A DNA stretch of 64,000 nucleotides from Escherichia coli (GTDB lineage: Bacteria > Pseudomonadota > Gammaproteobacteria > Enterobacterales > Enterobacteriaceae): assembly GCF_003991155.1 (NCBI RefSeq), contig NZ_CP031293.1; one strand, 5' to 3'. Below, one piece after another: positions 28,387-61,705 of this stretch. The position numbers were made by a program, and so were the translations under genes. The first letter of the stretch is position 1, and each line of letters begins with the position of its first letter. The notes under the pieces are model-generated. The model saw nothing but the letters and a program-made list of their open reading frames with translations. It was not told the DNA's origin and ran no database searches.

Positions 28387-28410
28387 ACGTCATTCGCTTA
28401 AAAATGAGAA

Positions 28411-28440: not shown

Positions 28441-28467
28441 TTGTCGTTGCTAACAATGGAGCACATT

Positions 28468-28503: not shown

Positions 28504-28533
28504 AACGTACAGTCATGGCGATTCGACTATAAA

Positions 28534-41613: not shown

Positions 41614-43182
41614 TTAGCGTGCCGGCTGAGTAGTCGTGGAAGACTGCTCAAAGTGATAGCGACCGGTTTTCAGGCTGCTTGGGCCGAGGCGTGCAAACTT
41701 GAACATTAAGAACAATTCTGCCACCAGGAACAGGGTATACAGGCCGCAAATCAGCACCATTGAGAAGATGAGATCGCCTGCGGTCAGTGACGAGTTCGCC
41801 ACAGCTGTCGGCAGCACTTCACCGATAGCCCACGGTTGGCGGCCATATTCAGCCACAAACCAGCCCGCTTCTACAGCAATCCACGGCAGCGGAATACCGT
41901 ACAGCGCGGCGCGCAGCAGCCATTTTTTCTCGCCAATGCGGTTGCGGATGACACTCCAGAAAGAGAGCGCGATGATTGCCAGCAGCAGGAAGCCACACGC
42001 CACCATGATACGGAACGCGAAGTACAGCGGCGCTACACGCGGAATGGAGTCTTTGGTTGCCTGTTGAATCTGCGCTTCAGTCGCATCAGCCACGTTTGGC
42101 GTATAGCGTTTCAGCAGCAGACCGTAACCGAGGTCTTTCTTCATGCTATTGAACTGGTCACGAACCGCCTGGTCGGTAGAACCAGAACGCAGTTGCTCGA
42201 GCAGAGAGTACGCCTTCATCCCGTTACGAATGCGTTCTTCATGCTGCACCATCAGTTCTTTCAGGCCGATAACTGGAGTATCCACGGAACGCGTTGCAAT
42301 GATGCCCAGCGCGTAAGGGATCTGGATCGCAAATTTGTTCGTCTCCTCTTCCTGATCAGGAATGCCGAACAGAGTAAAGGCAGCAGGCGCAGGTTGCGTT
42401 TCCCACTCGGCTTCAATAGCAGCCAGTTTGGTTTTCTGCACGTCGCCCATTTCGTAACCAGATTCATCACCCAGAACAATAACAGACAGAACGGCAGCCA
42501 TACCGAAGCTGGCAGCGATAGCAAAGGAGCGTTTAGCGAAGGCGAAGTCACGACCTTTCAGCATATACCATGCGCTGATACCGAGGATGAACATCGCGCC
42601 AGTCACATAACCAGACGCTACAGTGTGAACGAATTTCACCTGAGCAACCGGGTTAAGCACCAGCTCGGAGAAGCTCACCATCTCCATACGCATAGTTTCA
42701 AAGTTGAAATCGGACGCGATTGGGTTTTGCATCCAGCCGTTCGCAACCAGAATCCACAGTGCGGACAGGTTTGAACCGAGCGCCACCAGCCAGGTGACAC
42801 ACATATGCTGAACTTTACCCAGACGATCCCAACCGAAGAAGAACAGACCTACAAAGGTGGATTCGAGGAAGAAGGCCATTAGACCTTCGATTGCCAGCGG
42901 CGCACCGAAGATATCCCCTACATAGTGGGAATAGTAAGACCAGTTAGTCCCGAACTGGAACTCCATGGTCAGACCGGTAGCCACACCCAGAGCGAAGTTG
43001 ATACCAAACAACTTGCCCCAGAACTTGGTCATATCTTTATAAATCTGTTTGCCGGAAAGGACGTAGACCGTTTCCATAATGGCCAGCAGGAACGCCATAC
43101 CGAGCGTCAGTGGCACAAAAAGGAAGTGGTACATCGCGGTCAAGGCAAACTGTAAGCGCGACAGTTCGACTATATCTAACAT
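41614..43182 (-). CDS. cydA: Cytochrome bd-I ubiquinol oxidase subunit I
   Basis: 522 aa from [24 protein letters not shown]. Confidence 0.95.
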
Positions 43183-43185
43183 CAT

Positions 43186-43987
43186 GACTCCTTGCTCATC
43201 GCATGAAGACTCCGAGAGTGAACCCCGTTAGAAAGGGTCACACGCATGCCCCAATACAAAATTATTTGCTCGCCTCTATCGTTGCCATTTCATCAAAAGA
43301 GGAAAAGACAATGATAAAAAAGTTACAAATATGTTAATGAATAAACCAAATTGATCCCGTAATTATATTACGCCGCAAAATCCTTACAATAAACAGGTTT
43401 TTATTGAGCAAATTTGCATTTTTCGACAGTGATCAATTTATAGCGAAATTGTCACGATCTCACCAATTTGATCTACGACAATTTATCGTGTTTTGCAGAT
43501 TTTTTTCAAGAATTAAAAATTGATTTATATCAAAACCAACCAAATATGTTAATTATGTATAAACCATAGATCATTGGTGATTTTATTGTTAATTTATTGT
43601 GAAATATTTATGCAACACAATTATTACAATGAAAAGGTATAGATAAAAAACCAGTGTTTTATTTAACAGAACCGCCTTATCCACTTTTTATAATACCAAT
43701 TGATTAGATTAGCCAATTTGTTGCTATTTTACATAACATATTTTTATCAAAGTTAATTGATTGTTGCCTTTATGAGCACCGGCCGTAAGCCCGTTATGTT
43801 ATTGTTTCATTAGTAATAATCACTTAAATGTATCGATGAAACAGGTATGACTTAGCGGGAGTGATTGTTTCTGAGTGAACAGAAACCACTTTCGCCTGAT
43901 AAATGAAAAATGAGCGATTTTTGCAAGTTAGTTTTTCTATAGCCGAGTACGCTCAGCGCCTCGCTTGATTACAATGAGGTTGCTGCT
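43186..43987. promoter_or_regulatory. Long AT-rich cydA upstream region / island junction
   Basis: About 800 bp with no ORF of 60 aa or more, visibly AT-rich; the cydAB promoters (FNR/ArcA-regulated in K-12) are expected here but individual sites were not resolved. Confidence 0.4.
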
Positions 43988-44932
43988 ATGAGTCCTGATA
44001 ATATCGGTTCGGCTGTCAATCGCTTCTCAGGTTGGCCATCTAATGATCCTCTAAAAACAGATAACGAATCAATGACATCACCCGTGACTGTGCAGGTAAT
44101 AAAGATGATTGCCGCCATCCTTGACCCATATCGGATAGTCGTTGGAATCGATACACTTTATACAACGCAGCGCGAAACATTTACCTCAGAGAGTCAACAG
44201 CTCATTGAATCAGCATTGCAAACACTTCATGTGATAAATTTAAATAACCTGGAAACAAATCTCGATGAGGACGGTCACTATCTGGCTTTTGGATATAACG
44301 TTGACACTCCTGACAGAATAACCGTTTCTGCTTATAATGAAAAAAAGCCTGGCTGCTATGGCCAATGTCTTTTAATACAGGATGACGAAACAGACTTATT
44401 TAACCTGATAAAAGTTAAAATTTTTGAAGCCAGGCATAATTATGTCGCTCAATTGATGAGCGATCCGGAATTTATGTTCAAATTTAGTTATAGCGCTCAA
44501 CAAAATAGATTAGAACCTCATCTTCTGGTTCCCACTTATTTCCCTCTAAAAACAAACGAACCGGTTACGCAAGAGGATGTACTGTTACTTTATCGTTTCT
44601 TTAAAATGGATGGTGATTTTAATATATTAACATCAGATGAATACATGAGTATCATGACACCTCTGATGAAGTGTGAGCGCAGCATCCACGACCACAACAG
44701 GTATGTGACGGGCAAAGATACCCTTCTTCTGGACTATCCTCCTTCTGGTAACCAGATATATTTCCATATTTTTCCTGACGAATCAGCAACACTAGTCCTT
44801 TATTTTTCAAACAATGACATTGAATGTTTCGTCTTTGAAAGAGATATTCCGAGCCAGTATCGCTTTTTCAAAATGTTTACCAATCTGGCACTGGTTATTG
44901 ATCAGTTAACCGATGCCAATCAAATACTTTAA
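43988..44932 (+). CDS. Hypothetical protein (314 aa), AT-rich, no recognised family
   Basis: ATG with gagg RBS about 9 nt upstream; contains internal YRFFKM repeat; low-GC codon usage. Confidence 0.6.
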   Translation: MSPDNIGSAVNRFSGWPSNDPLKTDNESMTSPVTVQVIKMIAAILDPYRIVVGIDTLYTTQRETFTSESQQLIESALQTLHVINLNNLETNLDEDGHYLAFGYNVDTPDRITVSAYNEKKPGCYGQCLLIQDDETDLFNLIKVKIFEARHNYVAQLMSDPEFMFKFSYSAQQNRLEPHLLVPTYFPLKTNEPVTQEDVLLLYRFFKMDGDFNILTSDEYMSIMTPLMKCERSIHDHNRYVTGKDTLLLDYPPSGNQIYFHIFPDESATLVLYFSNNDIECFVFERDIPSQYRFFKMFTNLALVIDQLTDANQIL

Positions 44933-45012
44933 TTTTTATATATTCCCTGTGGCAAATATTGCTAAACAATGCCCGGGGATTAATTTTTATTACTCACGGA
45001 AAGATTTAAATA

Positions 45013-45435
45013 ATGATCCCATCTCAAATCTCTTTCAACACCCTTCCTGTCAATGCAACATACGCTTCAGAGACAACAGTTGACACACAAAAATTCTCTG
45101 ACATCCTCTACTCAGCGGGGTGTTCCCTAAAGGATCTGGCTTATCTGAGCAGATGTCTGGCATCAATACATCCGACTATCGCCAAAAACATTTATGAAAC
45201 AGAAAATCTCAGCGATCAAAAATTACTACATATTGATTGCCGTAGTACAAATGAAATCAAGATAAATATCTTTTTTGGTCAACAACGAGAAGGATTAATT
45301 GAAATTAATTCTGACACTGTCATTTTTTCGATATTGTCTTCATTAATTGACTCCGCCATTTCTAAATTTCAACACCAAATCCCCGTTAACGGTTCAGTTA
45401 ATCGTGAACTATTGTATGAGGATTATACTGATTAA
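45013..45435 (+). CDS. Hypothetical protein (140 aa), AT-rich, no recognised family
   Basis: ATG start; Ser/Thr/Asn-rich N-terminus, acidic C-terminus; 80 bp downstream of previous ORF. Confidence 0.55.
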   Translation: MIPSQISFNTLPVNATYASETTVDTQKFSDILYSAGCSLKDLAYLSRCLASIHPTIAKNIYETENLSDQKLLHIDCRSTNEIKINIFFGQQREGLIEINSDTVIFSILSSLIDSAISKFQHQIPVNGSVNRELLYEDYTD

Positions 45436-45981
45436 ATCCACCCAGTCGCGAAAATGGCCTGCGTTATTGCCAGAGGTAATAAAACCTTTGATTAACGTTA
45501 CTCATACTGGTAGCACCTTCATGTACCTCTCTTTTTTACGAAAAATCAAAAGAGCTAACTAAGGTCATAATTCGCATGAATCATTAACCATTTGTTATTT
45601 TCAACATTATTTTTACATTAAGCAGAGATGAATTGCAGTGAAATTCGACTTAAATTTTATGAAATGCATTTACTCATGGCTAAACCCATATCACTAAAAT
45701 GCAAATTAGAAGTAGATCACAAATACCTCAATACACCAAATCAAGTTAATTTTAAAAATTTAACATTCATGACATTAGTTGACATAACACACTGAATTAA
45801 CATGAGAATTTAACAACATACTTTAAACAATCATTTCCCGAAAGACATTTTGAAAATAGATCAATTGCAACATTACGGTCAGATAAAGACACTCCTGTGA
45901 TATTAAACCTGTGCCGTTATGAACGGCCATAAATACGACGTGTGTAACTTATTTTACTCTCTGTCTTACAAAGGATTACCC

Positions 45982-46431
45982 ATGAAGAAAGCAACACTTG
46001 TGATTGGCGTTATTGGCGCGGACTGCCATGCAGTAGGCAATAAAGTTCTGGACCGCGTTTTTAGCAACCATGGCTTCAGAGTCATTAATCTGGGCGTAAT
46101 GGTCAGCCAGGACGAATATATTGATGCGGCCATTGAAACTGGCGCTGACGCGATTGTCGTCTCCTCTATCTATGGGCATGGCGATATCGACTGTCTGGGC
46201 ATGCGCGAACGCTGCATCGAGCGTGGACTGGGGGACATCCTGCTCTATGTGGGCGGTAACCTGGTGGTCGGAAAACATGACTTCGCTGACGTGGAAACCA
46301 AATTCAAAGAGATGGGATTTGATCGCGTCTTTGCCCCAAGTCATGACTTAGAAGATGTTTGTCAGCTGATGGCACACGATATCAACCAACGTCATGACGT
46401 TGATACTCGTATTCTTGAAGAGGCAATCTGA
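45982..46431 (+). CDS. Glutamate mutase sigma (S) subunit, B12-binding
   Basis: [24 protein letters not shown]: DxHxxG cobalamin-binding motif; strong similarity to clostridial GlmS/MutS; aagga RBS; ORF track start 45919 is an extension. Confidence 0.9.
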
Positions 46432-47819
46432 TGCAAATCGTCTCTGTCGATATTGGATCGACGTGGACCAAAGCAGCCCTCTTCGCCCGGGAGGGGGATG
46501 CGTTAACGTTGGTTAACCACGTACTGACCCCAACCACCACCCATCATCTGGCGAAGGGGTTTTTCTCCAGCCTGAACCTGGTGTTAAACGTAGATAATGC
46601 CCTCCCCCTGTTTAACAACGGTGAGGTTGCATTGAAGTATTCCTCCTCTGCCAAAGGTGGGCTGGCGGTTGCCGCAATGGGATTGGTGCCTTCTATCACC
46701 CTGGAAACCGCGAAAGTAACCGCTCACTCTGCGGGGGCTAAAATTGCGCAATATTACGCCTACAAGCTGAACCGCCGTGATATCCAGGCACTGGAAGAAA
46801 CGCAGCCCGATATTCTCTTGTTCACCGGCGGCACCGACGGCGGAGAAGAAAGCTACGGCCTGAATAACGCCCGTGTGCTGGCAGAATCCAAACTCGACTG
46901 CGCCATTATTTATGCCGGAAACCGGGATATTCAGGACGAGGTGCAGGAGATCCTAGGGCATAAAGACCTGACCATCGTCGACAACGTTCTGCCCGATCTT
47001 GACCATCCGAACCCTTTAGCTGCACGCCAGGCTATCTGCGACATATTCCTTAAACGCATCGTTAAAGGGAAAGGGCTGGATGTCGTTGTTGATAAAACAG
47101 GCGAAGAACCAATGCCGACACCGTGGACAGTCTTTGAACTGGTTAAGGCAATCAGTAATGTCGATCACAGCTGGAAAGAGTTCATGCTGATCGACATGGG
47201 TGGCGCAACCACCGATGTCTATTCCGCCTGTGCCAACACGCTCTCGCCCGACACCGTTTTACACGGCGTACCGGAACCCTTCGTGAAACGGACGGTGGAA
47301 GGCGATCTGGGAATGCGCGTCTCGGCAATGGTGGTTGGTGAAAGTGCGAAAGAGTTAGTCAATGTGAATTTTGCTCAGCAACCCGCACAGCTGGACGCTT
47401 TTTATCATTACCTCCGTCATCTAGTCGCTCATCCCGACTACTTACCCGCGAATGCAGAAGAAAAATATTTCGATACCGTCCTGGCCGGACTGTGTGTGGG
47501 TTATGCCACCGAAAGACATGCGGGCACCAAAAAAGAGGTCTGCACCTGCGTCGGCAATGTCGATTTACAGATGGGACGTGACCTGACAACCGTGCGTAAA
47601 GTCGTCGGATCCGGCGGATGGCTCTCGCGTGCCAGTCAGTTCGATATGCATCACTGGTTGAAATACCGCGAGTTAAACGACGACGGTAAACGCATTCTCT
47701 TACCGACCGAATTTGAATATTACCGCGATTCCCGGGGGCTATTACCACTGCTGGCAAACGTCGCCAGAGTCGATCCGCTGGCCGCCGCGCGCACCAGTAT
47801 TCAATGCTTAACCCTATAA
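46431..47819 (+). CDS. Glutamate mutase-associated protein L (MutL/GlmL-like, putative reactivase)
   Basis: 462 aa; start overlaps S-subunit stop (TGATG); position between S and E as in Clostridium. Confidence 0.8.
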   Translation: MQIVSVDIGSTWTKAALFAREGDALTLVNHVLTPTTTHHLAKGFFSSLNLVLNVDNALPLFNNGEVALKYSSSAKGGLAVAAMGLVPSITLETAKVTAHSAGAKIAQYYAYKLNRRDIQALEETQPDILLFTGGTDGGEESYGLNNARVLAESKLDCAIIYAGNRDIQDEVQEILGHKDLTIVDNVLPDLDHPNPLAARQAICDIFLKRIVKGKGLDVVVDKTGEEPMPTPWTVFELVKAISNVDHSWKEFMLIDMGGATTDVYSACANTLSPDTVLHGVPEPFVKRTVEGDLGMRVSAMVVGESAKELVNVNFAQQPAQLDAFYHYLRHLVAHPDYLPANAEEKYFDTVLAGLCVGYATERHAGTKKEVCTCVGNVDLQMGRDLTTVRKVVGSGGWLSRASQFDMHHWLKYRELNDDGKRILLPTEFEYYRDSRGLLPLLANVARVDPLAAARTSIQCLTL

Positions 47820-47837
47820 CAATTAAGGCTGCAATCA

Positions 47838-49283
47838 ATGGAACTTCGAAATAAGAAATTAACCCATGACGAATTCATGACCGAGCGGCAACAGGTACTG
47901 AAAACCTGGGAAACCGGCAAGGATGTTGAAAACTTTGAAGATGGCGTTAAATACCAACAAACCATTCCTGAGCATAAACGCTTCTCTCTTGCCCTGCTGA
48001 AAGCAGACAAGGAAGGTAAAACTCTTAGCCAACCGCGCGCAGGCGTGGCGCTGATGGACGAACACATCGAACTACTGAAAACACTACAAGAAGAGTGCGA
48101 TCTGCTGCCGAGCACCATCGATGCATATACCCGTCTGAATCGGTACGAAGAAGCGGCTGTAGGGATTAAAAAATCCATCGAAGCCGGAACCTCTAAACTG
48201 AACGGTTTACCGGTCGTTAACCACGGCGTCGCAGCTTGCCGTCGCCTCACCGAAACTCTGCAAAAACCGCTACAGATCCGCCACGGCACGCCAGATGCGC
48301 GTCTGCTGGCTGAAATCTCGATGGCCAGCGGCTTTACCAGTTATGAAGGCGGCGGCATTTCCTACAATATTCCGTATGCCAAGCGCGTAACGCTGGAAAA
48401 ATCGATCCGCGACTGGCAGTACTGCGACCGTTTAATGGGGATGTATGAAGAACACGGGATCCGCATCAACCGCGAACCGTTTGGCCCACTAACGGGTACC
48501 CTGATCCCGCCGTTTATCTCGCACTCTATCGCGATAATCGAAGGCTTGCTGGCGCTGGAACAGGGTGTGAAATCTATCACCGTTGGTTATGGACAGGTCG
48601 GCAGCCTGACGCAGGATGTTGCGGCGATCCAGTCTCTGCGTGAACTTGCACACGAATATTTTCAGAGCTATGGCTATACCGACTATGAATTAAGTACCGT
48701 GTTTCACCAGTGGATGGGCGGCTTTCCGGAAGACGAATCGAAAGCGTTCGCTATTATCTCCTGGGGCGCAGCCGTCGCGGGGATGTCTGGTGCCACCAAA
48801 GTCATCACCAAAAGTCCGCACGAAGCCTGGGGCATCCCGACTGCCGCTGCCAACATTCAGGGGCTGAAAGCCTCCCGCCAGATGCTCAACATGGTCAACG
48901 AGCAGAAATTCCCGCCGTGCCCTGCGGTTGAACTGGAAATTGAACTGATTAAGAGCGAGGTTCGCGCGGTACTGAATAAAGTGTTCGAACTGGGTAATGG
49001 TGATATTGCGCGCGGTACGGTGCTGGCATTTGAAGCGGGCGTACTGGATGTGCCGTTTGCGCCAGCCGCCTGCAACGCGGGCAAAATTCTTCCGGTCCGT
49101 GACAACACCGGCGCGATACGCGTACTGGAAGCCGGAGCCGTTCCATTGCCAAAAGATATTCTCGACCTCCACCACGATTACGTTGCGGAACGCGCACGCT
49201 TTGAAGGACGCCAACCGACATTCCAGATGGTTGTAGATGACATCAATGCTGTATCCCACAGTAAATTAATAGGAAGACCATAA
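47838..49283 (+). CDS. Glutamate mutase epsilon (E) catalytic subunit
   Basis: MELRNKKLTHDEFMTERQQVLKTWETGKDV closely matches clostridial GlmE/MutE N-terminus; 481 aa. Confidence 0.9.
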   Translation: MELRNKKLTHDEFMTERQQVLKTWETGKDVENFEDGVKYQQTIPEHKRFSLALLKADKEGKTLSQPRAGVALMDEHIELLKTLQEECDLLPSTIDAYTRLNRYEEAAVGIKKSIEAGTSKLNGLPVVNHGVAACRRLTETLQKPLQIRHGTPDARLLAEISMASGFTSYEGGGISYNIPYAKRVTLEKSIRDWQYCDRLMGMYEEHGIRINREPFGPLTGTLIPPFISHSIAIIEGLLALEQGVKSITVGYGQVGSLTQDVAAIQSLRELAHEYFQSYGYTDYELSTVFHQWMGGFPEDESKAFAIISWGAAVAGMSGATKVITKSPHEAWGIPTAAANIQGLKASRQMLNMVNEQKFPPCPAVELEIELIKSEVRAVLNKVFELGNGDIARGTVLAFEAGVLDVPFAPAACNAGKILPVRDNTGAIRVLEAGAVPLPKDILDLHHDYVAERARFEGRQPTFQMVVDDINAVSHSKLIGRP

Positions 49284-50524
49284 TGAAAATAAAACAGGCT
49301 CTGTTCACCGCTGGCTACTCCTCATTCTATTTCGATGACCAGCAGGCGATAAAAAACGGAGCGGGTCATGACGGCTTTTTTTATACCGGGGAGCCGGTAA
49401 CACAGGGGTTTAACGCCGTTCGTCAGGCCGGGGAGTGCGTATCAGTACAGTTGATTCTGGAAAACGGCTCGGTCGCCGTAGGTGACTGTGCTGCCGTACA
49501 GTATTCCGGGGCAGGTGGTCGCGATCCACTGTTCCTCGCTGAGCACTTTATTCCGTTCCTCAACGACCATATCAAGCCATTACTGGTAGGCCGCGATGTG
49601 GATGCTTTCCTGCCGAATGCCCGTTTCTTCGACAAATTGCGTATTGACGGCAACTTGCTGCATACCGCCGTGCGCTACGGATTATCACAGGCGCTGCTTG
49701 ATGCTACCGCGCTGGCAACCGGCCGTCTGAAAACTGAAGTAGTTTGCGATGAATGGCAGTTGCCACGCGTGGCGGAATCCATTCCATTATTTGGTCAGAG
49801 CGGGGACGATCGATATATCGCCGTCGATAAGATGATCCTTAAGGGCATCGACGTGCTGCCCCATGCACTGATTAATAACGTCGAAGAGAAACTGGGCTTT
49901 AAAGGTGAAAAACTGCGCGAATATGTCCGCTGGCTGTCGGATCGTATTCTGAGCAAGCGCACCAGCGCACGCTACCACCCTACCCTGCACATCGATGTAT
50001 ACGGCACTATCGGTCTGATCTTCGATATGGATCCGCTTCGCTGTGCGCAATACATCGCCAGCCTGGAAAAAGAAGCGCAAGGCCTGCCGCTCTACATTGA
50101 AGGGCCGGTCGATGCCGGTAACAAGCCCGATCAAATTCGCCTGCTGACCGCGATTACCAAAGAGCTGACGCGCCTCGGTTCCGGCGTGAAAATTGTGGCC
50201 GATGAATGGTGTAACACCTACCAGGATATTGTTGATTTCACTGATGCCGCCAGTTGTCACATGGTGCAAATCAAAACCCCGGATCTGGGCAGTATTCACA
50301 ACATCGTCGATGCGGTTCTTTACTGCAACAGCCACAGCATGGAAGCGTACCAGGGCGGCACCTGCAATGAAACTGATGTCAGTGCCCGCACCTGTGTCCA
50401 CGTCGCCCTTGCCGCTCGCCCTATGCGTATGCTGGTAAAGCCAGGGATGGGCTTTGACGAAGGCCTCGATATCGTCTTCAACGAAATGAATCGTACTATC
50501 GCGCTGTTGCAGGCTAAGGATTAA
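49283..50524 (+). CDS. 3-methylaspartate ammonia-lyase (beta-methylaspartase)
   Basis: MKIKQALFTAGYSSFYFDDQQAIKNGAGHDGF..DCAAVQYSGAGGRDPLF matches clostridial methylaspartase; start overlaps E-subunit stop. Confidence 0.92.
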   Translation: MKIKQALFTAGYSSFYFDDQQAIKNGAGHDGFFYTGEPVTQGFNAVRQAGECVSVQLILENGSVAVGDCAAVQYSGAGGRDPLFLAEHFIPFLNDHIKPLLVGRDVDAFLPNARFFDKLRIDGNLLHTAVRYGLSQALLDATALATGRLKTEVVCDEWQLPRVAESIPLFGQSGDDRYIAVDKMILKGIDVLPHALINNVEEKLGFKGEKLREYVRWLSDRILSKRTSARYHPTLHIDVYGTIGLIFDMDPLRCAQYIASLEKEAQGLPLYIEGPVDAGNKPDQIRLLTAITKELTRLGSGVKIVADEWCNTYQDIVDFTDAASCHMVQIKTPDLGSIHNIVDAVLYCNSHSMEAYQGGTCNETDVSARTCVHVALAARPMRMLVKPGMGFDEGLDIVFNEMNRTIALLQAKD

Positions 50525-50527
50525 CAA

Positions 50528-51898
50528 ATGGCTCGTTCTTTTAAAGTCTTATCGCCAACGGCAATCCTCGGGTATGGATTCCCGGAAGAGAGCTTCCGCA
50601 AAGCGATGGCAGAATCGCCCGATCTGATCGCCGTTGATGCAGGCTCTTCCGATCCTGGCCCCCACTACCTCGGAGCGGGCAAACCGTTTACCGATCGCGC
50701 AGGGGTCAAGCGCGATCTGCGCTATATGATCACCGCAGGCGTGCAAAATAATATACCGGTGGTGATCGGAACAGCTGGCGGTTCTGGTGCCGCACCACAC
50801 CTGGAGTGGTGCCGAGAAATAATTCATGAGATTGCCCGGGAAGAGCGACTCGTGTTCTCGATGGCGCTGATCCCGGCAGACGTTGACAAAGCCATCGTCC
50901 ACCAGGCGCTGGATAACGGCAAAATCACGGCGCTGGATTTTGTCCCGCCGTTAACCCACGACGCGATTGACGAAAGTACGTATATCGTTGCGCAAATGGG
51001 CATCGAACCCTTCCAGCGGGCGCTGAAAGAAGGCGCGCAAGTGGTGCTGGGCGGGCGCGCTTACGACCCGGCCTGCTTTGCTGCGCTCCCGATCATGCAA
51101 GGCTTTGATGAAGGTCTGGCGCTGCATTGTGGGAAAATCCTTGAATGCGCGGCAATCGCCGCAACGCCCGGCTCAGGCTCTGACTGTGCGATGGGCATCA
51201 TTGATGACAACGGCTTTACGCTGAAGACATTTAATCCGAAGCGTAAATTTACCGAAACGTCAGCGGCTGCACACACACTGTATGAGAAATCCGATCCCTA
51301 CTTCCTGCCTGGACCTGGCGGCGTGTTGAACCTGAAAGGCTGCACATTTAAAGCGGTCAATGACGGCGAAGTGTACGTCAGCGGTTCTAAGCATGAAGAA
51401 ACGCCGTATGCCCTGAAACTGGAAGGTGCGCGACGGGTGGGCTTCCGCTGTCTGACCATCGCAGGAACGCGCGACCCGATCATGATCGCCGGGATCGATA
51501 AAATCATCGATGAAGTCAAAACCAGCGTTTCACGTAACCTGTCGCTCGACGATGACAGCATTCGCATCAATTTCCACCTGTACGGCAAAAACGGGGTGAT
51601 GGGCGACCATGAACCGATGCAAACTGCCGGGCATGAGCTGGGGATTGTCCTTGATGTAGTTGCACCGACCCAGGAAATTGCCAATAGCGTTTGCTCGCTG
51701 GTGCGCTCTACCATGCTGCACTACGGCTATGAAAACCGCATCGCTACCGCAGGCAATCTGGCGTTCCCGTTCTCCCCTTCTGATATCCAGGGCGGGCCGG
51801 TATACGAATTTTCCATATATCACCTGATTGAAGCCAACGACGCTCTGCGTTTTGATTTCCATATTGAACAGGTGACGCCAGAAGGAGTTCAGGCATGA
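50528..51898 (+). CDS. DUF1446-like (AtuA-like) protein of unknown function
   Basis: 456 aa; N-terminus ...VLSPTAILGYGFPEE resembles the DUF1446 family by recall; 3 nt after methylaspartase stop. Confidence 0.65.
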   Translation: MARSFKVLSPTAILGYGFPEESFRKAMAESPDLIAVDAGSSDPGPHYLGAGKPFTDRAGVKRDLRYMITAGVQNNIPVVIGTAGGSGAAPHLEWCREIIHEIAREERLVFSMALIPADVDKAIVHQALDNGKITALDFVPPLTHDAIDESTYIVAQMGIEPFQRALKEGAQVVLGGRAYDPACFAALPIMQGFDEGLALHCGKILECAAIAATPGSGSDCAMGIIDDNGFTLKTFNPKRKFTETSAAAHTLYEKSDPYFLPGPGGVLNLKGCTFKAVNDGEVYVSGSKHEETPYALKLEGARRVGFRCLTIAGTRDPIMIAGIDKIIDEVKTSVSRNLSLDDDSIRINFHLYGKNGVMGDHEPMQTAGHELGIVLDVVAPTQEIANSVCSLVRSTMLHYGYENRIATAGNLAFPFSPSDIQGGPVYEFSIYHLIEANDALRFDFHIEQVTPEGVQA

Positions 51899-52212
51899 AA
51901 CAGTCAATTGTCTCACTGGCGCAAGTCATTCGTTCGAAAAATGCCGGACCTTACGAACTGGTTTTAGATATTTTATTTAAAACGAAAGAAAACTATGAGC
52001 GAGTTAAATCATCAGGGCAATTAACCCCAGAACTGATTGCGCGCTTATATCATGTTGAACCTGACTTTATTCACCGTATTGTCTGGTTTGATCCTTCTAA
52101 CGCAGTAAAAATCGTCATGCCACGAGATATTATCTCCGGGAATGTAGGTGACAATGATGTCTATGGTGCACAGCAACATGCACCTTTATTAAATATGAGT
52201 TTCGATTTGTAA
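51895..52212 (+). CDS. DUF4387-like small protein (usual partner of DUF1446)
   Basis: 105 aa; ATG overlaps upstream stop (ATGA); family assignment by recall. Confidence 0.6.
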   Translation: MKQSIVSLAQVIRSKNAGPYELVLDILFKTKENYERVKSSGQLTPELIARLYHVEPDFIHRIVWFDPSNAVKIVMPRDIISGNVGDNDVYGAQQHAPLLNMSFDL

Positions 52213-52372
52213 AAATCCGAATACTTTTAGCCAACTGACATCCCGTCACTTATTGCAGTTCAACACTTCAGCTATTTGTAAGGTTGTAATAGCAGGTAGA
52301 TGCCTGAATCTCTATTCAGGCATCTACTTCTCCTGATTCTGATTTATCGCCGTGCACCTGATGGAGGAAAAA

Positions 52373-53653
52373 ATGAAGAAAATAAGTTTAACCACGATGA
52401 TTCTTTTGGCGCTGGTACTTGGAATGATTATCGGCGTAGTGCTCAATAACACTGCTTCACCGGAAACCGCAAAACTCTATGCGCAAGAAATATCGATATT
52501 CACGACGATTTTCTTACGACTGATAAAAATGATTATCGCTCCGTTAGTGGTCTCTACCCTGGTGGTAGGTATAGCTAAAATGGGAGATGCCAAAGCCCTT
52601 GGTCGTATTTTTTCTAAAACACTCTTTTTATTTATTTGCGCCTCATTGCTGTCAATTGCCTTAGGCTTGATAACGGTAAATTTCTTCATGCCAGGCACAG
52701 GAATTAATTTTGTTGCACACGGTGCCGAAACCACCGGAGTGGTCGCGTCAGAACCCTTTACACTAAAAGTATTTATTTCGCATGCTTTCCCCACCAGCAT
52801 TGTCGATGCCATGGCACACAATGAAATTTTGCAAATCGTGGTGTTCTCAATTTTCCTCGGCTGTAGCCTGACGGCGATTGGTGAGAAAGGCAGCGCCATC
52901 GTTCACGCCTTAGATTCGCTGGCACATGCCATGTTAAAGCTCACTGGCTACGTCATGCTCTTCGCTCCCCTGACCGTATTCGCCGCTATTTCAGCATTGA
53001 TTGCTGAACGAGGACTGGCAGTTATGGTGAGCGCCGGGATCTTTATGGGTGAATTTTATTTCACCATGTTGTTACTTTGGGTGCTGCTTATCGGTCTGGC
53101 CATCGTTTATGTCGGCCCCTGCATCAGACGCCTGACCCGTGCCCTTTCGGAACCCGCCCTGCTGGCATTTACCACATCCAGTTCTGAAGCGGCTTTTCCG
53201 GGAACGCTTGAAAAACTGGAGCAATTTGGCGTTTCCCCCAAAATTGCCAGCTTTGTCTTACCCATTGGCTACTCATTTAATCTCGTTGGATCAATGGCCT
53301 ACTGCTCCTTCGCCACAGTTTTCATCGCCCAGGCCTGCAATATCCATTTATCCATCGGTGAGCAAATCACCATGCTGTTGATCCTGATGTTGACCTCGAA
53401 AGGAATGGCTGGCGTACCACGCGCCTCAATGGTGGTTATCGCCGCCACGCTCAACCAGTTCAATATTCCGGAAGCGGGGCTGATCTTGCTGATGGGCGTT
53501 GATCCGTTCCTTGATATGGGGCGTTCCGCGACAAACGTCATGAGCAACGCAATGGGCGCTGCGATGGTGAGTCGGTGGGAAGGCGAACATTTCGGCGAGG
53601 GCTGTCGGGGTAAAGCATTAAAACCCAATGAATCGAACGTTGCTCTGCCCTGA
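52373..53653 (+). CDS. Dicarboxylate/amino acid:cation symporter (DAACS, GltP-like)
   Basis: 426 aa polytopic protein; ggagg RBS before ATG 52373; ORF track start 52352 is an extension. Confidence 0.8.
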   Translation: MKKISLTTMILLALVLGMIIGVVLNNTASPETAKLYAQEISIFTTIFLRLIKMIIAPLVVSTLVVGIAKMGDAKALGRIFSKTLFLFICASLLSIALGLITVNFFMPGTGINFVAHGAETTGVVASEPFTLKVFISHAFPTSIVDAMAHNEILQIVVFSIFLGCSLTAIGEKGSAIVHALDSLAHAMLKLTGYVMLFAPLTVFAAISALIAERGLAVMVSAGIFMGEFYFTMLLLWVLLIGLAIVYVGPCIRRLTRALSEPALLAFTTSSSEAAFPGTLEKLEQFGVSPKIASFVLPIGYSFNLVGSMAYCSFATVFIAQACNIHLSIGEQITMLLILMLTSKGMAGVPRASMVVIAATLNQFNIPEAGLILLMGVDPFLDMGRSATNVMSNAMGAAMVSRWEGEHFGEGCRGKALKPNESNVALP

Positions 53654-53760
53654 GGGGGATCTTAAGCAATCAGAAGCCAATGACTACGCATTTTTATAAG
53701 CCGGATCATGAAGTTAGACGGCAATTAAGTAAAACTAACGTTTAAGGTGAAAAGTGAAAT

Positions 53761-55413
53761 ATGTCCAAACCATTTATCTGGCAAGAACCGTTTCTACAAA
53801 ATAAAGACGGTACAGAATATACATTAATTAGCGATCAACATATTACAGTAACGGAATTAGACGGCGAAGAAGTGATAAAAATCGCTCCTGAAGCATTAAC
53901 GCTGCTTGCCCGGCAGGCATTTTATGAAGCCTCTTTTTTCTTACGTTCCGCTCATTTGCAACAGGTCGCCAGCATTCTTAACGATCCGCACGCCAGTAGT
54001 AATGATAAATACGTTGCGTTGCAGTTATTACGTAATGCTGAAGTCTCAGCAAAAGGGGTATTACCCAACTGTCAGGATACCGGCACCGCAACTATTGTTG
54101 CCAGTAAAGGGCAACAGATATGGACCGGAGGTAACGACGCTGAAGCCTTAAGCAAAGGCATTTACACCACTTTTCAGGAAAATAATCTGCGCTTTTCACA
54201 AAATGCGCCACTGGATATGTATACCGAAGTCAATACGCAAACCAATCTACCGGCGCAGATTGATATCAGCGCCGTCGCTGGTGATGAGTACCATTTTCTC
54301 TGTATTAATAAAGGGGGCGGCTCTGCCAATAAAGCCGCGCTTTATCAGGAAACCAAATCCCTATTGCAACCAGAAAAACTGACCGCATTTTTAATCGAAA
54401 AAATGAAATCGCTGGGCACCGCTGCCTGCCCGCCTTACCACATCGCCTTTGTCGTCGGAGGGCTTTCAGCCGATCAAACCTTAAAAGTTGCCAAGCTGGC
54501 CTCAACGAAATATTACGACAATTTGCCCACCAGCGGAAACGAGCAAGGACAAGCATTCCGTGATATTGAGCTGGAAAAAGTATTGCTCGAGGCCAGTCAG
54601 CAATTTGGTATTGGTGCGCAATTTGGGGGTAAATATTTCGCTCATGATATTCGCGTCATTCGTCTGCCGCGTCACGGTGGCTCTTGCCCGATAGCTATGG
54701 CGCTCTCCTGTTCTGCGGATCGCAATATCAAAGCAAAAATTAACAAGCACGGTATCTGGCTGGAAAAACTCGAACACAATCCGGGGCAATATATTCCAGC
54801 CTCACTGCGGGAAGAAAATCACGCGCAACATGTACAGCTGGATCTAAACCGTCCGTTGCGTGACGTGATGCAGGATCTCGCCAGATTACCGGTAGGCACC
54901 CGCGTGTCGTTAAGTGGTCCCATCGTAGTGGCGCGCGATATCGCCCACGCCAAAATAAAAGCGCGGCTGGATAGCGGCGAACCGATGCCGGATTACCTGA
55001 AGCATCATATTGTCTATTACGCTGGCCCGGCGAAAACACCGGAGAACATGGCCTGCGGTTCACTGGGTCCAACCACGGGCGGTCGAATGGACGGTTATGT
55101 CGATACCTTCCAGGCGGCTGGCGGCAGTCTGGTGATGTTATCGAAAGGTAACCGCAGCCAGCAGGTCACCGATGCCTGTCACAAACATGGCGGCTTCAAT
55201 CTGGGGAGTATTGGCGGTGCAGCTGCGTTACTGGCGCAAGAATATGTCAAAAGTCTGCGTTGCCTGGAATACCCGGAGCTGGGTATGGAAGCGGTGTGGA
55301 TGATGGAAGTGGAAAATTTACCCGCATTCATCCTGGTAGATGATAAAGGCAATAATTTCTTTAGTCAGTTTGAGCAGCAACACCGCTGCGCCAGTTGCCC
55401 TGCGGGACATTAA
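53761..55413 (+). CDS. fumD: Class I (Fe-S) fumarate hydratase-family enzyme, probable mesaconase
   Basis: 550 aa, FumA/FumB-like along full length; context with methylaspartase suggests mesaconate hydration; symbol follows the name used for the E. coli O157:H7 enzyme (recalled, not verified). Confidence 0.8.
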
Positions 55414-55422
55414 GGAAAATGA

Positions 55423-56025
55423 ATGGAAGCGCGAATTTCAACTGAACGGCATGTGCAGCGCCAGCAGAAATTGAAGGAACAGGTCGATACGCGCGTCGCG
55501 GCGGCGATAGAGAAAAAAGGGATTTTGATTGTTTTCACCGGCAACGGCAAAGGGAAATCCACTGCCGCGTTTGGTACTGTGACGCGCGCGGTGGGTCATG
55601 GCAAAACGGTGGGGGTTGCGCAGTACATCAAGGGGCAATGGGACAACGGCGAATACAACCTTCTCCAACCGCTGGGGGTTGAGTTTCATATTATGGGAAC
55701 CGGTTTTACCTGGGAGACACAGAACCGGCAAGCGGATATCGACGCGGCGAAAGAGGTCTGGTCGGAAAGCAAACGGATGCTGGCTGACAAGCGTTACGAC
55801 TTAGTGGTGCTTGATGAGCTGACCTATATGCTGGCTTACCATTATCTGGACACCGAAGAAGTGATCGCTTCTCTGCAAAACCGCCCGGCACAACAAAGTG
55901 TCATTGTCACCGGACGCGGTTGCCACAGTCAGATATTAAAAATGGCGGATACGGTCAGCGAAATCCGCCCCGTCAAACATGCTTTTGATAACGGCATTCA
56001 GGCGCAGCCGGGTATCGACTGGTAA
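55423..56025 (+). CDS. Cob(I)alamin adenosyltransferase (BtuR/CobA/CobO family)
   Basis: 200 aa; P-loop GNGKGKST; 9 nt downstream of the hydratase. Confidence 0.85.
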   Translation: MEARISTERHVQRQQKLKEQVDTRVAAAIEKKGILIVFTGNGKGKSTAAFGTVTRAVGHGKTVGVAQYIKGQWDNGEYNLLQPLGVEFHIMGTGFTWETQNRQADIDAAKEVWSESKRMLADKRYDLVVLDELTYMLAYHYLDTEEVIASLQNRPAQQSVIVTGRGCHSQILKMADTVSEIRPVKHAFDNGIQAQPGIDW

Positions 56026-56058
56026 TAACTGCGCCTGGCATCCCGCCAGGCGCAGGTT

Positions 56059-56964
56059 TTACATCTCCTGCGGTACGACCGATTTCGCCAGCAACCATTC
56101 ACGAAATTGCTGCAAGTGCGGTGAGTCAGACTTCTCTTCCTGCCACGTCATAATAAAACGATTACCGGTACGAATAGGCACATCACAGGGAATCACCATA
56201 TCGCCACTATCCAAATCATGTTGAATAGCGAACCGTGGTAACAGCGCCACGCCGAGATTAGAGCGCACGGCGGCAATCAGCATTGAAAGCAAATCGAAAC
56301 GTGGTCCGTTATTGACCAGCGGACTGCTAACGCCAGATAAAGCAAACCACTCTTCCCAGCCAGTAATACGGGTGCTTTGATGCAGAAGTGGTAACTCAGT
56401 AAGCAGTTCTGCCACTGACAGTTTTTGATCGGACATTGCAAGCAAACTGCCGCTGCATACCGGCAAAATCTCCTCATCAAAGAGATATTCTACTTCCGCC
56501 CAGGGCGCGCAAAAATTTTCGCGCATAATGACAGCATCGTACTCCCGATTAAGAAAATCGCCGTTATTAGCTAAAGAATGAATATTAACAATAATATCGG
56601 GATGTAACTTTGTGAATTCATGTAAATTTGGGATTAACCAGTGGGTACTAAAAGTAGGATTAACGGCAAGTTCAATAACCTGAACCGTAGGCTGCCAGGT
56701 CATAATGGTATTGGTATCGCGTTCCAGCTTATTTAATGTTTCTTTTACTATCCCCAGGTAATACTTCCCTGCATCATTAAGAAAAATGCGTTTTTTAGAG
56801 TGTGAAAATAACGGAGTACGTAAAAATTCCTCCAGCGCACTTACTTGTCTGAATACTGCACTTTGGGTTAACGCTAACTCCTCTGCCGCTCTGGTATAAC
56901 TTTCATGACGTGCGACGACCTCAAAAGTCACCAGCAGTTCCGTTTTAGGTATTTTTCCTCGCAT
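56059..56964 (-). CDS. LysR-family transcriptional regulator
   Basis: 301 aa; N-terminal HTH FEVVARHESYTRAAEELALTQSAVFRQVSALE. Confidence 0.85.
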   Translation of the reverse strand: MRGKIPKTELLVTFEVVARHESYTRAAEELALTQSAVFRQVSALEEFLRTPLFSHSKKRIFLNDAGKYYLGIVKETLNKLERDTNTIMTWQPTVQVIELAVNPTFSTHWLIPNLHEFTKLHPDIIVNIHSLANNGDFLNREYDAVIMRENFCAPWAEVEYLFDEEILPVCSGSLLAMSDQKLSVAELLTELPLLHQSTRITGWEEWFALSGVSSPLVNNGPRFDLLSMLIAAVRSNLGVALLPRFAIQHDLDSGDMVIPCDVPIRTGNRFIMTWQEEKSDSPHLQQFREWLLAKSVVPQEM

Positions 56965-57002
56965 AATGCCTTCCCTTAAAAATAGTTGAAACTATCAAAA
57001 AA

Positions 57003-57026
57003 CCATTACTTATTGCTAAGTAATGG
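57003..57026. promoter_or_regulatory. Perfect inverted repeat, candidate operator upstream of LysR gene
   Basis: ccattacttattgctaagtaatgg (10-bp arms, 4-bp spacer) 40 bp upstream of LysR start; contains T-N11-A type LysR motif. Confidence 0.4.
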
Positions 57027-57234
57027 CAACCAAAGCAGCAATCAATATTTTATAAAAATCATGTTCGATATTTATAACCTGGTAAGCCTGGCGTGACAAT
57101 TGTCTCAATCAGACAATAATAATCCGAAAAGCAAAACGCCCTTCGGATTATTATGATTCAAGTTAAGTGAAGATTATTAAATTGATAGCAATTATCATAT
57201 CTATGGATATTATGACAAACAATCAACAAAAATT

Positions 57235-58905
57235 TTATTTTTGATTTATAGCATATCCTTCTAAGAATTTTTGCGAAGCTGCAATATCTGGGGTAAAGAC
57301 CCGATCCTGGTCGACAAACGGCACGACTTTTCTGTATTCGGTAAACATTGCTTTGGTGGATTTCCCTAATGCCAGTTGTGGATCGGCCTGCAACCGTAAA
57401 TCGAGAGCCTGTGCGGAATGCATCAGTTCAATGCCATAAATCACGTTCAGATTATCGACAACCTGTTTCAATCTTCTGGCCGCGTGGTCATTATTGGCAC
57501 CGGTATCTTCTATACCTCCGGCAACCGGTTGAATATCGAAAGAAACCGGGTTAGCGAGATCGACATTTTCCGCATGCAGCGCAACAAACGGGATATGTAA
57601 TGAACCGAAGCCATGACCTTTATTACCTGCTGCCGACAGGAAGCGTGACAAACCGGTAAAGTGATCATCTTCAAGATGCAGCGAGCGGCGCATACTGTTA
57701 TGTGAAACATGCACTAACGCCACGGTCAGACGCTGGGTGGCAAGCGCAACCGGTAACGATTCGAAATTCGCCGTCGGGAAGATCCCACCGCTGATTGCCC
57801 CATCTTTAACAAAATATTGCGCGACCTGACTGGAGTCCTGATACGCTTTGTCTGCATTCAGCACGGTTGCCGGGTTGTCATCGGAACTGTTGATCTGCAC
57901 GGTAATGGTATCTTCAGCATCGCGCAACGCGCGCATTGCCTCAGAAATGGTATACACCGTCGTTCTGAACGATAACGGATCCTGCAATGCACGTTTGTCA
58001 TGCTTATGCCATAAATAAGAACCACTTAACGCATCGCGAATCTCTTTAGCGGAATCAGCCAACTGCGGGAAAGGACGCACGGCGATCGACTGCGGCAGTA
58101 CCGGCGCGACATTGCCATTCAACGCTTCCAGACTCATAGCGAAAACCACCGGGCTGACATTCAGCAACTGACGTGCCGAACGAACAGCTTCGATAGCGTA
58201 GGCTGTCCCGACGCTGTTGTTCGATAAAATCGCCAGCATATCTTTACCCTGCGGTACCAGTGGCTTAAGTCCCACTTTCGCCAGCGCGTCACCACCGCTC
58301 ATTTGCACGCCATTTACTCGGGCTTTCCATTCCCCCATCATCACCAGACCAACGTGCGAAGCGAGCATAATATCCGCTGCGCCGATACTTCCCCGCACCG
58401 GAATTAACGGTGTAACGCCGCGATTAATAAATTCGGCATACAACTCGGCAATATAAGGCTGTGCGCCGGTTTGCCCATGCAGCATGGTATTTAAACGTAA
58501 TACCATTGAAAGGCGTGCCAGATAATCCGGTAACATCGGACCAACGCCCGCAGAATGGGCGCGCAGCGCGGCAGCATTAAATTTTTTCGACGCGTCAATC
58601 ACCTCAGGCGTTAAATTTCCTTTGGCATCAAATATGGGCTGATCTTTATTTAGCCCCACGCCCACGGTTAAGCCATAAACAGGCGTACCTGAATGCGCGG
58701 CAGTCATCACCAGATCATAACTTTTTTCCATGCGCTCCATGGCGTTCGACGCGATTTTGACGCCGTTATCACCTAATGCAATTGACCAGGCCTGGTCAAT
58801 GGAAAGATGTTCGCCATCCAGCGTAATGGTTGATTTCGCCATCGCAATGGAGCAAACGCTCCAGAGCACAACGGTGACAGTGACTCTTCGTATCAATCCT
58901 TTCAT
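57235..58905 (-). CDS. Histidine/aromatic ammonia-lyase family homolog with predicted signal peptide and disrupted MIO (Ala-Ser-Gly) motif
   Basis: 556 aa; aligns with HAL throughout (e.g. GEWKARVNG.., LSNNSVGTAYA) but has GSIGAADIMLASH where HAL has GSVGASGDLAPLAH; N-terminus MKGLIRRVTVTVVLWSVCSIAMA-KS is Sec-signal-like; aagga RBS 6 nt upstream. Confidence 0.8.
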   Translation of the reverse strand: MKGLIRRVTVTVVLWSVCSIAMAKSTITLDGEHLSIDQAWSIALGDNGVKIASNAMERMEKSYDLVMTAAHSGTPVYGLTVGVGLNKDQPIFDAKGNLTPEVIDASKKFNAAALRAHSAGVGPMLPDYLARLSMVLRLNTMLHGQTGAQPYIAELYAEFINRGVTPLIPVRGSIGAADIMLASHVGLVMMGEWKARVNGVQMSGGDALAKVGLKPLVPQGKDMLAILSNNSVGTAYAIEAVRSARQLLNVSPVVFAMSLEALNGNVAPVLPQSIAVRPFPQLADSAKEIRDALSGSYLWHKHDKRALQDPLSFRTTVYTISEAMRALRDAEDTITVQINSSDDNPATVLNADKAYQDSSQVAQYFVKDGAISGGIFPTANFESLPVALATQRLTVALVHVSHNSMRRSLHLEDDHFTGLSRFLSAAGNKGHGFGSLHIPFVALHAENVDLANPVSFDIQPVAGGIEDTGANNDHAARRLKQVVDNLNVIYGIELMHSAQALDLRLQADPQLALGKSTKAMFTEYRKVVPFVDQDRVFTPDIAASQKFLEGYAINQK

Positions 58906-58955
58906 TGTGTTTCCTTATCATGATGAGTTTAACAACGGGTTACTGCGACAACGTT

Positions 58956-61117: not shown

Positions 61118-61704
61118 AAGGATTTTTCCCCTCGTAGATAATAAAGCCACCAGCCCGCCAGCTCACCGACGGAGACTTTCTTCCGTGGTACGAAACGCCA
61201 GGGCCTGCCATCAGGTGCAACCAGCCATAACAACATATTTGCCGCGACAAACACCCTTTTCTTGCCGCTTATCCACTCCCCTTCACACAGCGTGAACAGG
61301 CCCGCTTGCGCAAGTGACGGAGGACGCCAGTCAACGGCACTTTGCACCCGCAACATCCCCGCATCGCCTTCCCGCGCCATAACATTCAGATCGCGAACCC
61401 CGCCGCCCAGCAGCTGGCAATCAGGCATAGCTTCTCCAGGGAAAATTAAGGCGGGATCGTGACGTTGCAGGTTGATGATCGAATCGGCAAACGTTAGCTT
61501 CACCCCTTCCCCGTCGAGAATCGCGAGGCCACGAACCACGCCAGGCCACGCTGAAAAAGAGCCATCCTGACTGACATTCGCCATACTGATGCGCAACAAC
61601 CAGTTTTCATCATCGGGCCAGGCAAGCAGCTGTCGGGTAAACCCCCCGCCGTTGCGCCACGGTTGCAGCGGCTTATCCATTGCAGAAATCAGCATCGGTT
61701 CCAT
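61114..61704 (-). CDS. hutD: HutD-family protein
   Basis: 196 aa with WRNGGGFTRQL motif typical of HutD/Ves family. Confidence 0.75.
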   Translation of the reverse strand: MEPMLISAMDKPLQPWRNGGGFTRQLLAWPDDENWLLRISMANVSQDGSFSAWPGVVRGLAILDGEGVKLTFADSIINLQRHDPALIFPGEAMPDCQLLGGGVRDLNVMAREGDAGMLRVQSAVDWRPPSLAQAGLFTLCEGEWISGKKRVFVAANMLLWLVAPDGRPWRFVPRKKVSVGELAGWWLYYLRGEKSL

Positions 61705-61705
61705 A

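Follow-up and report, generated by a model that had tools for sequence, protein, structure and literature searches.

The subject of this analysis is a group of genes in a 64,000-nucleotide (nt) stretch of an Escherichia coli chromosome (contig NZ_CP031293.1, assembly GCF_003991155.1), referred to here as the window. Nine co-directional open reading frames (ORFs) on the plus strand, taken from an ORF listing of 43000–59000, span exactly positions 45982–56025, in agreement with the initial annotation, which had placed a cluster for the B12-dependent methylaspartate route at these coordinates. They are glmS, glmL, glmE, mal, cmlA, cmlB, a symporter gene, fumD and cobA (table 1). The cluster is the B12-dependent methylaspartate pathway that was described in 2015 for E. 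coli O157:H7, and in this respect it is already known. The initial annotation matches the knowledge of that year, and the step that it regarded as missing, the cleavage of citramalate, has since been assigned.

Table 1. Features of the methylaspartate cluster and its borders (positions in the window)
Feature	Position	Strand	Description
A+T-rich upstream region	45436–45981	+	presumed site of operon promoter and operator
glmS	45982–46431	+	149 amino acids (aa); glutamate (methylaspartate) mutase, small cobalamin-binding sigma subunit
glmL (mutL)	46431–47819	+	462 aa; glutamate mutase accessory protein, presumed reactivating chaperone
glmE	47838–49283	+	481 aa; glutamate mutase, large (epsilon) catalytic subunit
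mal	49283–50524	+	413 aa; 3-methylaspartate ammonia-lyase
cmlA	50528–51898	+	456 aa; large subunit of predicted AtuA/DUF1446-type citramalate lyase
cmlB	51895–52212	+	105 aa; small subunit (DUF4387) of predicted citramalate lyase
symporter gene	52373–53653	+	DAACS family dicarboxylate/amino acid:cation symporter; presumed glutamate importer
fumD	53761–55413	+	550 aa; class I [4Fe-4S] fumarase family, mesaconase/fumarase
cobA/cobO	55423–56025	+	200 aa; ATP:cob(I)alamin (cob(I)yrinic acid a,c-diamide) adenosyltransferase
hairpin	56029–56055		likely bidirectional terminator separating cobA from the convergent LysR gene
LysR-type regulator gene	56059–56964	-	GcvA-like; convergent with the operon

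The junctions had been described as overlapping stop and start codons, which holds for glmS/glmL (1 nt, TGATG), glmE/mal (1 nt, TAATG) and cmlA/cmlB (4 nt, ATGA), and does not hold for glmL/glmE, which are spaced by 18 nt, for mal/cmlA, which are spaced by 3 nt, or for the symporter gene, which is flanked by gaps of 160 and 107 nt. The spacing between fumD and cobA is 9 nt, and a ribosome-binding site, AAGGA, lies 8 nt 5' of the glmS start. The symporter start given here is that of RefSeq, and a longer ORF from 52352 is possible. In the region 52213–55413 and beyond, G+C is 41% in the 160-nt spacer, 49% in the symporter gene and fumD, and 53% in cobA. The drop in G+C, taken together with the two gaps, suggests a mosaic origin of the cluster or separate transcription units.

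Enzymes, cofactor and uptake up to citramalate

Protein families were assigned by comparing NCBIfam bit scores with the curated equivalog or subfamily cut-offs. GlmS, GlmL, GlmE, Mal, FumD and CobA each score over the cut-off, which upholds the identities first proposed for them: glutamate mutase proteins, methylaspartate ammonia-lyase, fumarase-family hydratase and cobalamin adenosyltransferase. GlmS reaches 254 bits on NF002612 (cut-off 110) and 246.6 bits on TIGR01501 (cut-off 135.8), and is 62% identical over its full length to GlmS of Clostridium cochlearium (1I9C_A, E=1.4e-50). The cobalamin-ligand motif DxHxxG, the loss of which had been set beforehand as a refutation, is intact as DCHAVG at residues 14–19, and a GG pair is present at 91–92. 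The accessory protein GlmL scores 885.8 bits on TIGR01319 (cut-off 204) and 508.5 bits on NF040745 (cut-off 475). GlmE has TIGR01503 as its sole NCBIfam match (865 bits, cut-off 390), is 58.8% identical end to end to 6H9E_B/1CCW (E=2e-190), and keeps the residues aligned to R66, R100, R149, E171, Y177 and Y181 of the C. cochlearium enzyme. The substrate-binding arginine triad (R66, R100 and R149) and Glu171 are functional residues in the C. cochlearium structures. As orthologues of the solved Clostridium enzymes, GlmS and GlmE are assigned to a coenzyme-B12-dependent glutamate mutase. A methylmalonyl-CoA mutase-like system was considered as another candidate and rejected: GlmS scores 52.8 bits on TIGR00640 (cut-off 57.45), far under its GlmS scores, and the large subunit GlmE has no methylmalonyl-CoA mutase match in NCBIfam.

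Mal scores 544 bits on TIGR01502 (cut-off 286). Its identity is 93.5% to the Citrobacter amalonaticus enzyme (1KKO) and 56% to that of C. tetanomorphum (1KCZ), and residues Q172, H194, D238, E273, D307, Q329 and K331 are kept. In this member of the enolase superfamily D238, E273 and D307 are the Mg2+ ligands and K331, H194 and Q329 the catalytic residues. The comparison with characterised clostridial enzymes, which had been proposed as a check, thus speaks for the assignment of GlmS, GlmE and Mal alike.

The class I fumarase encoded by fumD reaches 1285.9 bits on NF011921 (cut-off 1060) and stays under the cut-offs of the other class I fumarases (FumA, 928 against 1105; FumB-type, 924 against 1094). 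It differs from its orthologue in O157:H7 SS52 at 7 of 550 residues; this comparison was made with the SS52 protein and not with the assayed protein of strain ATCC 700728. The extra class I fumarase of O157:H7 was named FumD and characterised as a mesaconase, the recombinant enzyme preferring mesaconate (kcat/Km 2e6 M-1 s-1) over fumarate (7.5e5 M-1 s-1) (PMC4682846). The initial annotation was correct in pointing to an O157:H7 report with a mesaconase of this name.

CobA, whose sequence is identical to that of the SS52 copy, scores 246.6 bits on TIGR00708 (cut-off 167.75) and 295.6 bits on NF004637 (cut-off 185). The cluster holds its own adenosyltransferase and, as had been stated, no corrin synthesis genes; therefore, B12 has to be imported.

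The symporter had been called GltP-like. This name is appropriate at the level of the family and not at that of the equivalog, since the protein scores 304 bits on GltP (cut-off 638) and 314 bits on DctA (cut-off 513); a GltP equivalog was accordingly rejected and the assignment kept at the DAACS family. The protein is 40% identical to GltP and 34% identical to DctA of E. coli K-12. In transmembrane helix 8 its motif LDMGRSATN is like that of GltP (LDMARTALN) and unlike that of DctA (MSEARALTN). In GltPh structures the Asp of the LDMxR motif contacts the amino group of the substrate. Glutamate is the presumed substrate of the symporter.

The cmlA–cmlB pair and the predicted route to pyruvate and acetate

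The initial annotation had the symporter gene following mal directly and stated that the cluster lacks citramalate lyase. Between the two genes, however, lie 1.69 kb with two ORFs that had been skipped, cmlA and cmlB. In a search of the sequences in the Protein Data Bank (PDB), the product of cmlA matched chain A of 9ERQ/9EVF, named 'Citramalate lyase, subunit A (cmlA)' (E=2.8e-292), and that of cmlB matched chain B, named 'Citramalate lyase, subunit B (cmlB)' (E=5e-57). Chain A and the cmlA product are 92.1% identical over 456 residues, chain B and the cmlB product 84.6% over 104, and the title of 9ERQ is 'Citramalate lyase - AMPPNP - citramalate complex'. Because the two skipped ORFs are close orthologues of the solved CmlAB, the statement that a lyase is lacking was wrong. 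The citramalate lyase (cmlAB) of Raoultella planticola, which is probably the same protein as that in 9ERQ/9EVF, was used to cleave citramalate to pyruvate and acetate; growth on mesaconate and the flow of label into acetyl-CoA depended on it, the route was termed CoA-independent, and in engineered E. coli FumA plus Cml alone sufficed for growth on mesaconate (bioRxiv 10.64898/2026.01.16.699985). In the literature, the primary description of CmlAB was not found, and the preprint that uses the enzyme was. The solved and the R. planticola enzymes come from another species, and the E. coli pair is known here from its sequence. From its 92% and 85% identity and the use of the R. planticola enzyme in vivo, CmlAB is predicted to cleave (S)-citramalate to pyruvate and acetate. 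CmlAB may also bind ATP, given the nucleotide present in 9ERQ.

The family databases are less informative about this pair. CmlA gives a weak match to the Pfam family AtuA (PF07287; 66.6 bits, E=2e-18, residues 63–394) and no NCBIfam match, and CmlB belongs to Pfam DUF4387 (PF14330, E=2.9e-39). NCBIfam holds no model for either protein; RefSeq labels them 'acyclic terpene utilization AtuA family protein' and 'DUF4387 domain-containing protein', and several public records label CmlA '3-methylaspartate ammonia-lyase'. The first of these names comes from the AtuA of acyclic terpene utilisation in Pseudomonas, which is in the same Pfam family; however, the match of CmlA is weak and no atu genes surround it, so that the RefSeq name says nothing of function here. 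The protein that Kronen & Berg left as DUF1446 of 'unknown function' (PMC4682846) is CmlA. Among the ORFs in 45982–56964 no match to the CitD, CitE or CitF families was obtained, and cmlA and cmlB are assigned from their sequences as a citramalate lyase that is non-homologous to the classical CitDEF-type enzyme (EC 4.1.3.22).

Independent support for the CmlAB assignment comes from gene order. The arrangement GntR–B12_binding–MutL–Met_asp_mut_E–MAAL–AtuA–DUF4387–(uncharacterised ORF)–fumarase is present in Candidatus Rifleibacterium and in a second distant genome, where CmlA is 66% and 62% identical, respectively, to the protein described here. The pair lies directly 3' of mal in these two genomes, in O157:H7 and in the window. 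In both distant genomes cmlB is followed by a gene for a protein of 313–317 aa (10712–11665 in Rifleibacterium, 10677–11618 in the other), which could be assigned to no family and gave no more than a Walker-A/P-loop signal under the threshold; the E. coli cluster lacks such a gene and has the symporter gene at that place. An Accumulibacter genome carries cmlA–cmlB (9001–10679 of the locus, 67–68% identity), but genes for glutamate mutase, methylaspartase and fumarase are missing from the vicinity, which shows that the pair is not bound to the methylaspartate pathway everywhere.

These data bear on the view, raised by Kronen & Berg in 2015, that the cluster ends at (S)-citramalate and that this compound, for want of a lyase, is excreted or processed elsewhere. 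The fate of citramalate was left open at that time, no citramalate lyase activity was present in O157:H7 cells grown on citrate, acetate or propionate (PMC4682846), CitDEF-type genes are absent from the cluster, and neither NCBIfam nor RefSeq gives the two ORFs a functional name. However, the cells assayed in 2015 did not express the cluster (PMC4682846), the chains to which the skipped ORFs are 92% and 85% identical were solved with citramalate bound, the R. planticola genes support flux from mesaconate to acetyl-CoA in vivo (bioRxiv 10.64898/2026.01.16.699985), and the pair directly follows mal even in distant phyla. An end at citramalate is therefore considered highly improbable.

Positions 45982–56025 are very probably an enterobacterial methylaspartate-pathway cluster with all the genes for converting L-glutamate to pyruvate, acetate and ammonia. 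In the proposed sequence of steps, the GltP-related symporter would take up glutamate, and CobA, according to its family, would adenosylate salvaged cob(I)alamin to coenzyme B12. GlmS and GlmE would then convert L-glutamate to (2S,3S)-3-methylaspartate by a radical mechanism, with B12 bound in the base-off/His-on form through His16 of DCHAVG, and GlmL would maintain the activity of the mutase, probably by reactivation. Mal would eliminate ammonia from 3-methylaspartate to give mesaconate, which FumD would hydrate to (S)-citramalate, as has been shown biochemically for the O157:H7 orthologue. Finally, a CmlAB heterocomplex would cleave citramalate to pyruvate and acetate without CoA, so that in sum glutamate and water would yield ammonia, acetate and pyruvate.

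The chemistry from glutamate through methylaspartate, mesaconate and citramalate to pyruvate and acetate is shared with the clostridial pathway (C. tetanomorphum, C. cochlearium, C. tetani), to whose solved enzymes GlmS, GlmE and Mal are 62%, 59% and 56% identical with the catalytic residues kept. The two pathways differ in the later enzymes. Mesaconase is the two-subunit MesAB in clostridia and a single-chain FumA-like class I fumarase here, and citramalate lyase is a CitDEF-type acyl-carrier complex in clostridia, whereas the non-homologous CmlAB takes its place in E. coli. The E. coli cluster also adds the symporter and the adenosyltransferase, and its regulator is of the LysR type in contrast to the clostridial GntR type. 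In the methylaspartate cycle of haloarchaea, which serves acetate assimilation, mesaconate is turned into mesaconyl-CoA; genes for a CoA-transferase and a mesaconyl-CoA hydratase are absent here, and a mesaconase and a lyase are present instead.

Distribution, selection and regulation of the cluster

The region 45500–56500 was compared by megablast with 5426 complete E. coli genomes. It was found in 1138 of them (21%), and at least 80% of the query region was kept in 1117, at 95–100% identity and nearly always as one chromosomal copy; two of the 1142 matching places lay on plasmids and the rest did not. The region is 100% identical to that of strain 2016C-3878. O157:H7 genomes have the same gene order and are 98.5% identical in DNA; compared with O157:H7 SS52, each of the nine proteins shows 0–7 residue differences. 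According to Kronen & Berg (2015, PLoS One), 26.5% of E. coli strains and 90.6% of O157:H7 strains have the cluster (PMC4682846). The O157:H7 cluster has the order glmS–glmL–glmE–mal–DUF1446–DUF4387–symporter–fumD–cobA with a convergent LysR-type transcriptional regulator (LTTR) gene, at the same site next to cydA (PMC4682846).

The cluster is absent from K-12, as had been claimed; in MG1655 mngR–mngA–mngB lie in its place between sucD and cydA. Homology to K-12 5' of cydA stops at about 43559. The stretch 43559–45981 is accessory, being absent from K-12 and present in O157:H7. It contains two ORFs, 43988–44932 (314 aa) and 45013–45435 (140 aa), neither of which matched an NCBIfam or Pfam family, and in strain 2016C-3878 the second is broken by an extra IS1 at about 45395–45404.

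Across the nine genes, the ratio of non-synonymous to synonymous substitution rates (dN/dS) against O157:H7 is 0.061 at a dS of 0.054 (119.5 synonymous and 24.5 non-synonymous differences), from which it follows that these genes are under purifying selection. This result weighs on two further explanations of the cluster. One is that it serves mainly for exogenous five-carbon compounds (3-methylaspartate, mesaconate or citramalate) entering through the symporter, or that it runs partly in reverse. The symporter scores about equally on GltP and DctA and is under both cut-offs, and FumA plus Cml alone permit growth of engineered E. coli on mesaconate (bioRxiv 10.64898/2026.01.16.699985), which would fit such a use. 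However, mutase, chaperone and dedicated adenosyltransferase are all complete and maintained by purifying selection, so the conversion of glutamate to methylaspartate must belong to the flux, and the symporter has the GltP-type LDMxR motif and not the DctA-type SEAR. Therefore, a role centred on external five-carbon compounds is regarded as unlikely.

The other explanation is that E. coli does not use the cluster, which would be a silent relic whose genes happen to be intact. Expression was undetected in O157:H7 ATCC 700728 in all conditions tried (PMC4682846), no consensus promoter was found 5' of glmS, and the region upstream of the cluster has 35% G+C, which we infer to be typical of silenced horizontally acquired DNA. 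On the other hand, all nine ORFs are intact with the low dN/dS given above, most of the region is kept in the 1117 genomes, and the effect of disuse at this locus can be seen in O157:H7, where the adjoining lyase–hut–rtcB module survives as decayed fragments. It is thus very unlikely that the cluster is a relic, and the encoding of a complete route from glutamate remains the preferred reading.

The control of the cluster is less clear. G+C is 35% in 43186–45981 (from the start of cydA to glmS) against 52.6% in glmS–cmlB. An Rfam scan of 43000–57500 at E<=1 gave only a chance microRNA match, and the lack of an Rfam match 5' of glmS indicates that there is no cobalamin riboswitch. A scan for the sigma-70 consensus gave 8 matches against 16.3 in shuffled sequence, with none on the plus strand 5' of glmS. 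The hairpin after cobA, with an 11-pair stem containing 9 G-C pairs and a T-rich tail, is the strongest terminator-like site in 45300–57400; it is likely a bidirectional terminator that marks the end of the operon. The regulator beyond it has GcvA as its best NCBIfam match (221 bits, under the cut-off of 288), and also adjoins the cluster in O157:H7, with two amino-acid differences. It is labelled LTTR in figure 5 of Kronen & Berg, which also names GltP, FumD and CobA (PMC4682846). Judging from its convergent position, this LysR-type protein probably controls the operon.

Several points weigh against the proposed complete route. Strain O157:H7 ATCC 700728 showed neither methylaspartase activity nor glutamate-dependent anaerobic growth, and no conditions in which the cluster is expressed were found in that study (PMC4682846). 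The operon promoter was not located by a simple sigma-70 scan, and the gaps at the symporter gene, with the lower G+C of this gene and fumD, allow more than one transcription unit. The CmlAB assignment draws on the names given to the PDB molecules, on the title of an entry and on a single preprint in which gifted genes were used.

The neighbouring lyase–hut module and the meaning of the cluster

Beyond the LysR-type gene, the minus strand carries, in rising coordinate, genes for a lyase (57235–58905), HutG, HutI, HutD, an NCS1 permease and HutU, the last of which runs past the end of the window (module 57235–64000 and beyond). This module was found in 143–169 of the 5426 genomes (about 3%), against 1138 for the glutamate cluster. 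In strain 2016C-3878, which is 100% identical over 45500–64000, an RtcB-family gene follows hutU. The layout differs in O157:H7, where a spacer of 667 nt separates the LTTR gene from sucD, whereas here the lyase–hutG–hutI–hutD–permease–hutU module lies beyond the LTTR gene; in the genome NZ_CP029747, which is 100% identical, the RtcB-family gene also lies between the LTTR gene and sucD. When the O157:H7 SS52 locus (28300–29300) was compared with 56799–57776 of the window, its LysR–sucD spacer was found to hold fragments of the lyase gene that match 57235–57363 (90% identity) and 57715–57776 (87%), and it also holds fragments of the RtcB-family gene found after hutU in strain 2016C-3878. Because of these fragments, the O157:H7 layout looks like the result of a deletion of the lyase–hut–rtcB module from a larger ancestral island.

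The lyase is a 556-aa protein of the HAL/PAL/TAL family that is annotated hutH in one genome. It scores 281–298 bits against HutH cut-offs of 524–539, and its best solved relative is the ergothionase of Treponema denticola (6S7J, E=5.5e-85), compared with 7e-50 for histidine ammonia-lyase (HAL) of Pseudomonas putida. The Ala-Ser-Gly triad that forms 4-methylideneimidazole-5-one (MIO) is absent (GSIGAADIMLASH versus GSVGASGDLAPLAH; its own stretch is GSIGAADIML). The N-terminus, MKGLIRRVTVTVVLWSVCSIAMA, is signal-peptide-like, a feature that is kept in Gram-negative homologues and absent from those of Enterococcus. Taken together, the low HutH scores, the best match to 6S7J, the missing MIO triad and the signal-peptide-like N-terminus indicate that this lyase is not a histidase. 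The module as a whole holds no true histidase and no hutC repressor.

Homologues with 54–58% identity occur in Shewanella, Ferrimonas, Sutterella, Hafnia and Citrobacter. From these genera Bertsova et al. described periplasmic trimethylammonia-lyases, namely histidine betaine lyase, ergothionase and N(pi)-methyl histidine betaine lyase. The Lys that is essential for ergothionase (K384 of Td_ETL, motif AIQK) corresponds to Ile438 in the lyase described here (SLHI). HutU is a canonical urocanate hydratase (934 bits) and is under the cut-offs for thiourocanate and S-methyl-thiourocanate hydratases. These features make it probable that the lyase is a trimethylammonia-lyase of the periplasm that acts on histidine betaine or another related betaine, and a substrate of the histidine betaine type that yields urocanate is plausible. 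At three loci with the closest homologues outside Escherichia (P0127, P0128 and P0138) the lyase gene was not hut-linked, which neither supports nor sharpens the assignment of a substrate.

The lyase–hut module would yield glutamate, on which the adjacent cluster acts. A possibility that we regard only as tentative is that, in this strain and in about 3% of complete E. coli genomes, the glutamate cluster forms the lower part of a larger catabolic island that starts at the MIO-less lyase. In the periplasm, the lyase could split histidine betaine (hercynine) or a related betaine into trimethylamine and urocanate. Urocanate would enter the cell through the NCS1 permease and be turned into glutamate by HutU, HutI and HutG, and GlmSE, Mal, FumD and CmlAB would carry glutamate to pyruvate and acetate. 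In Shewanella, lyases of this kind supply urocanate reductases of the periplasm that serve respiration. If the island exists, it would join such a lyase to Hut enzymes in the cytoplasm and to the methylaspartate pathway in a novel arrangement, and would provide a new route to trimethylamine in the gut. The observation of the MIO-less lyase beside the cluster may itself be new.

The practical point is the annotation gap for the citramalate lyase subunits CmlA and CmlB, since their outdated annotation leads automated metabolic reconstructions and human readers alike to infer, wrongly, a dead end at citramalate. With this gap closed, about a fifth of E. coli strains, O157:H7 included, are seen to hold the genes predicted for a B12-dependent conversion of gut glutamate to pyruvate and acetate.

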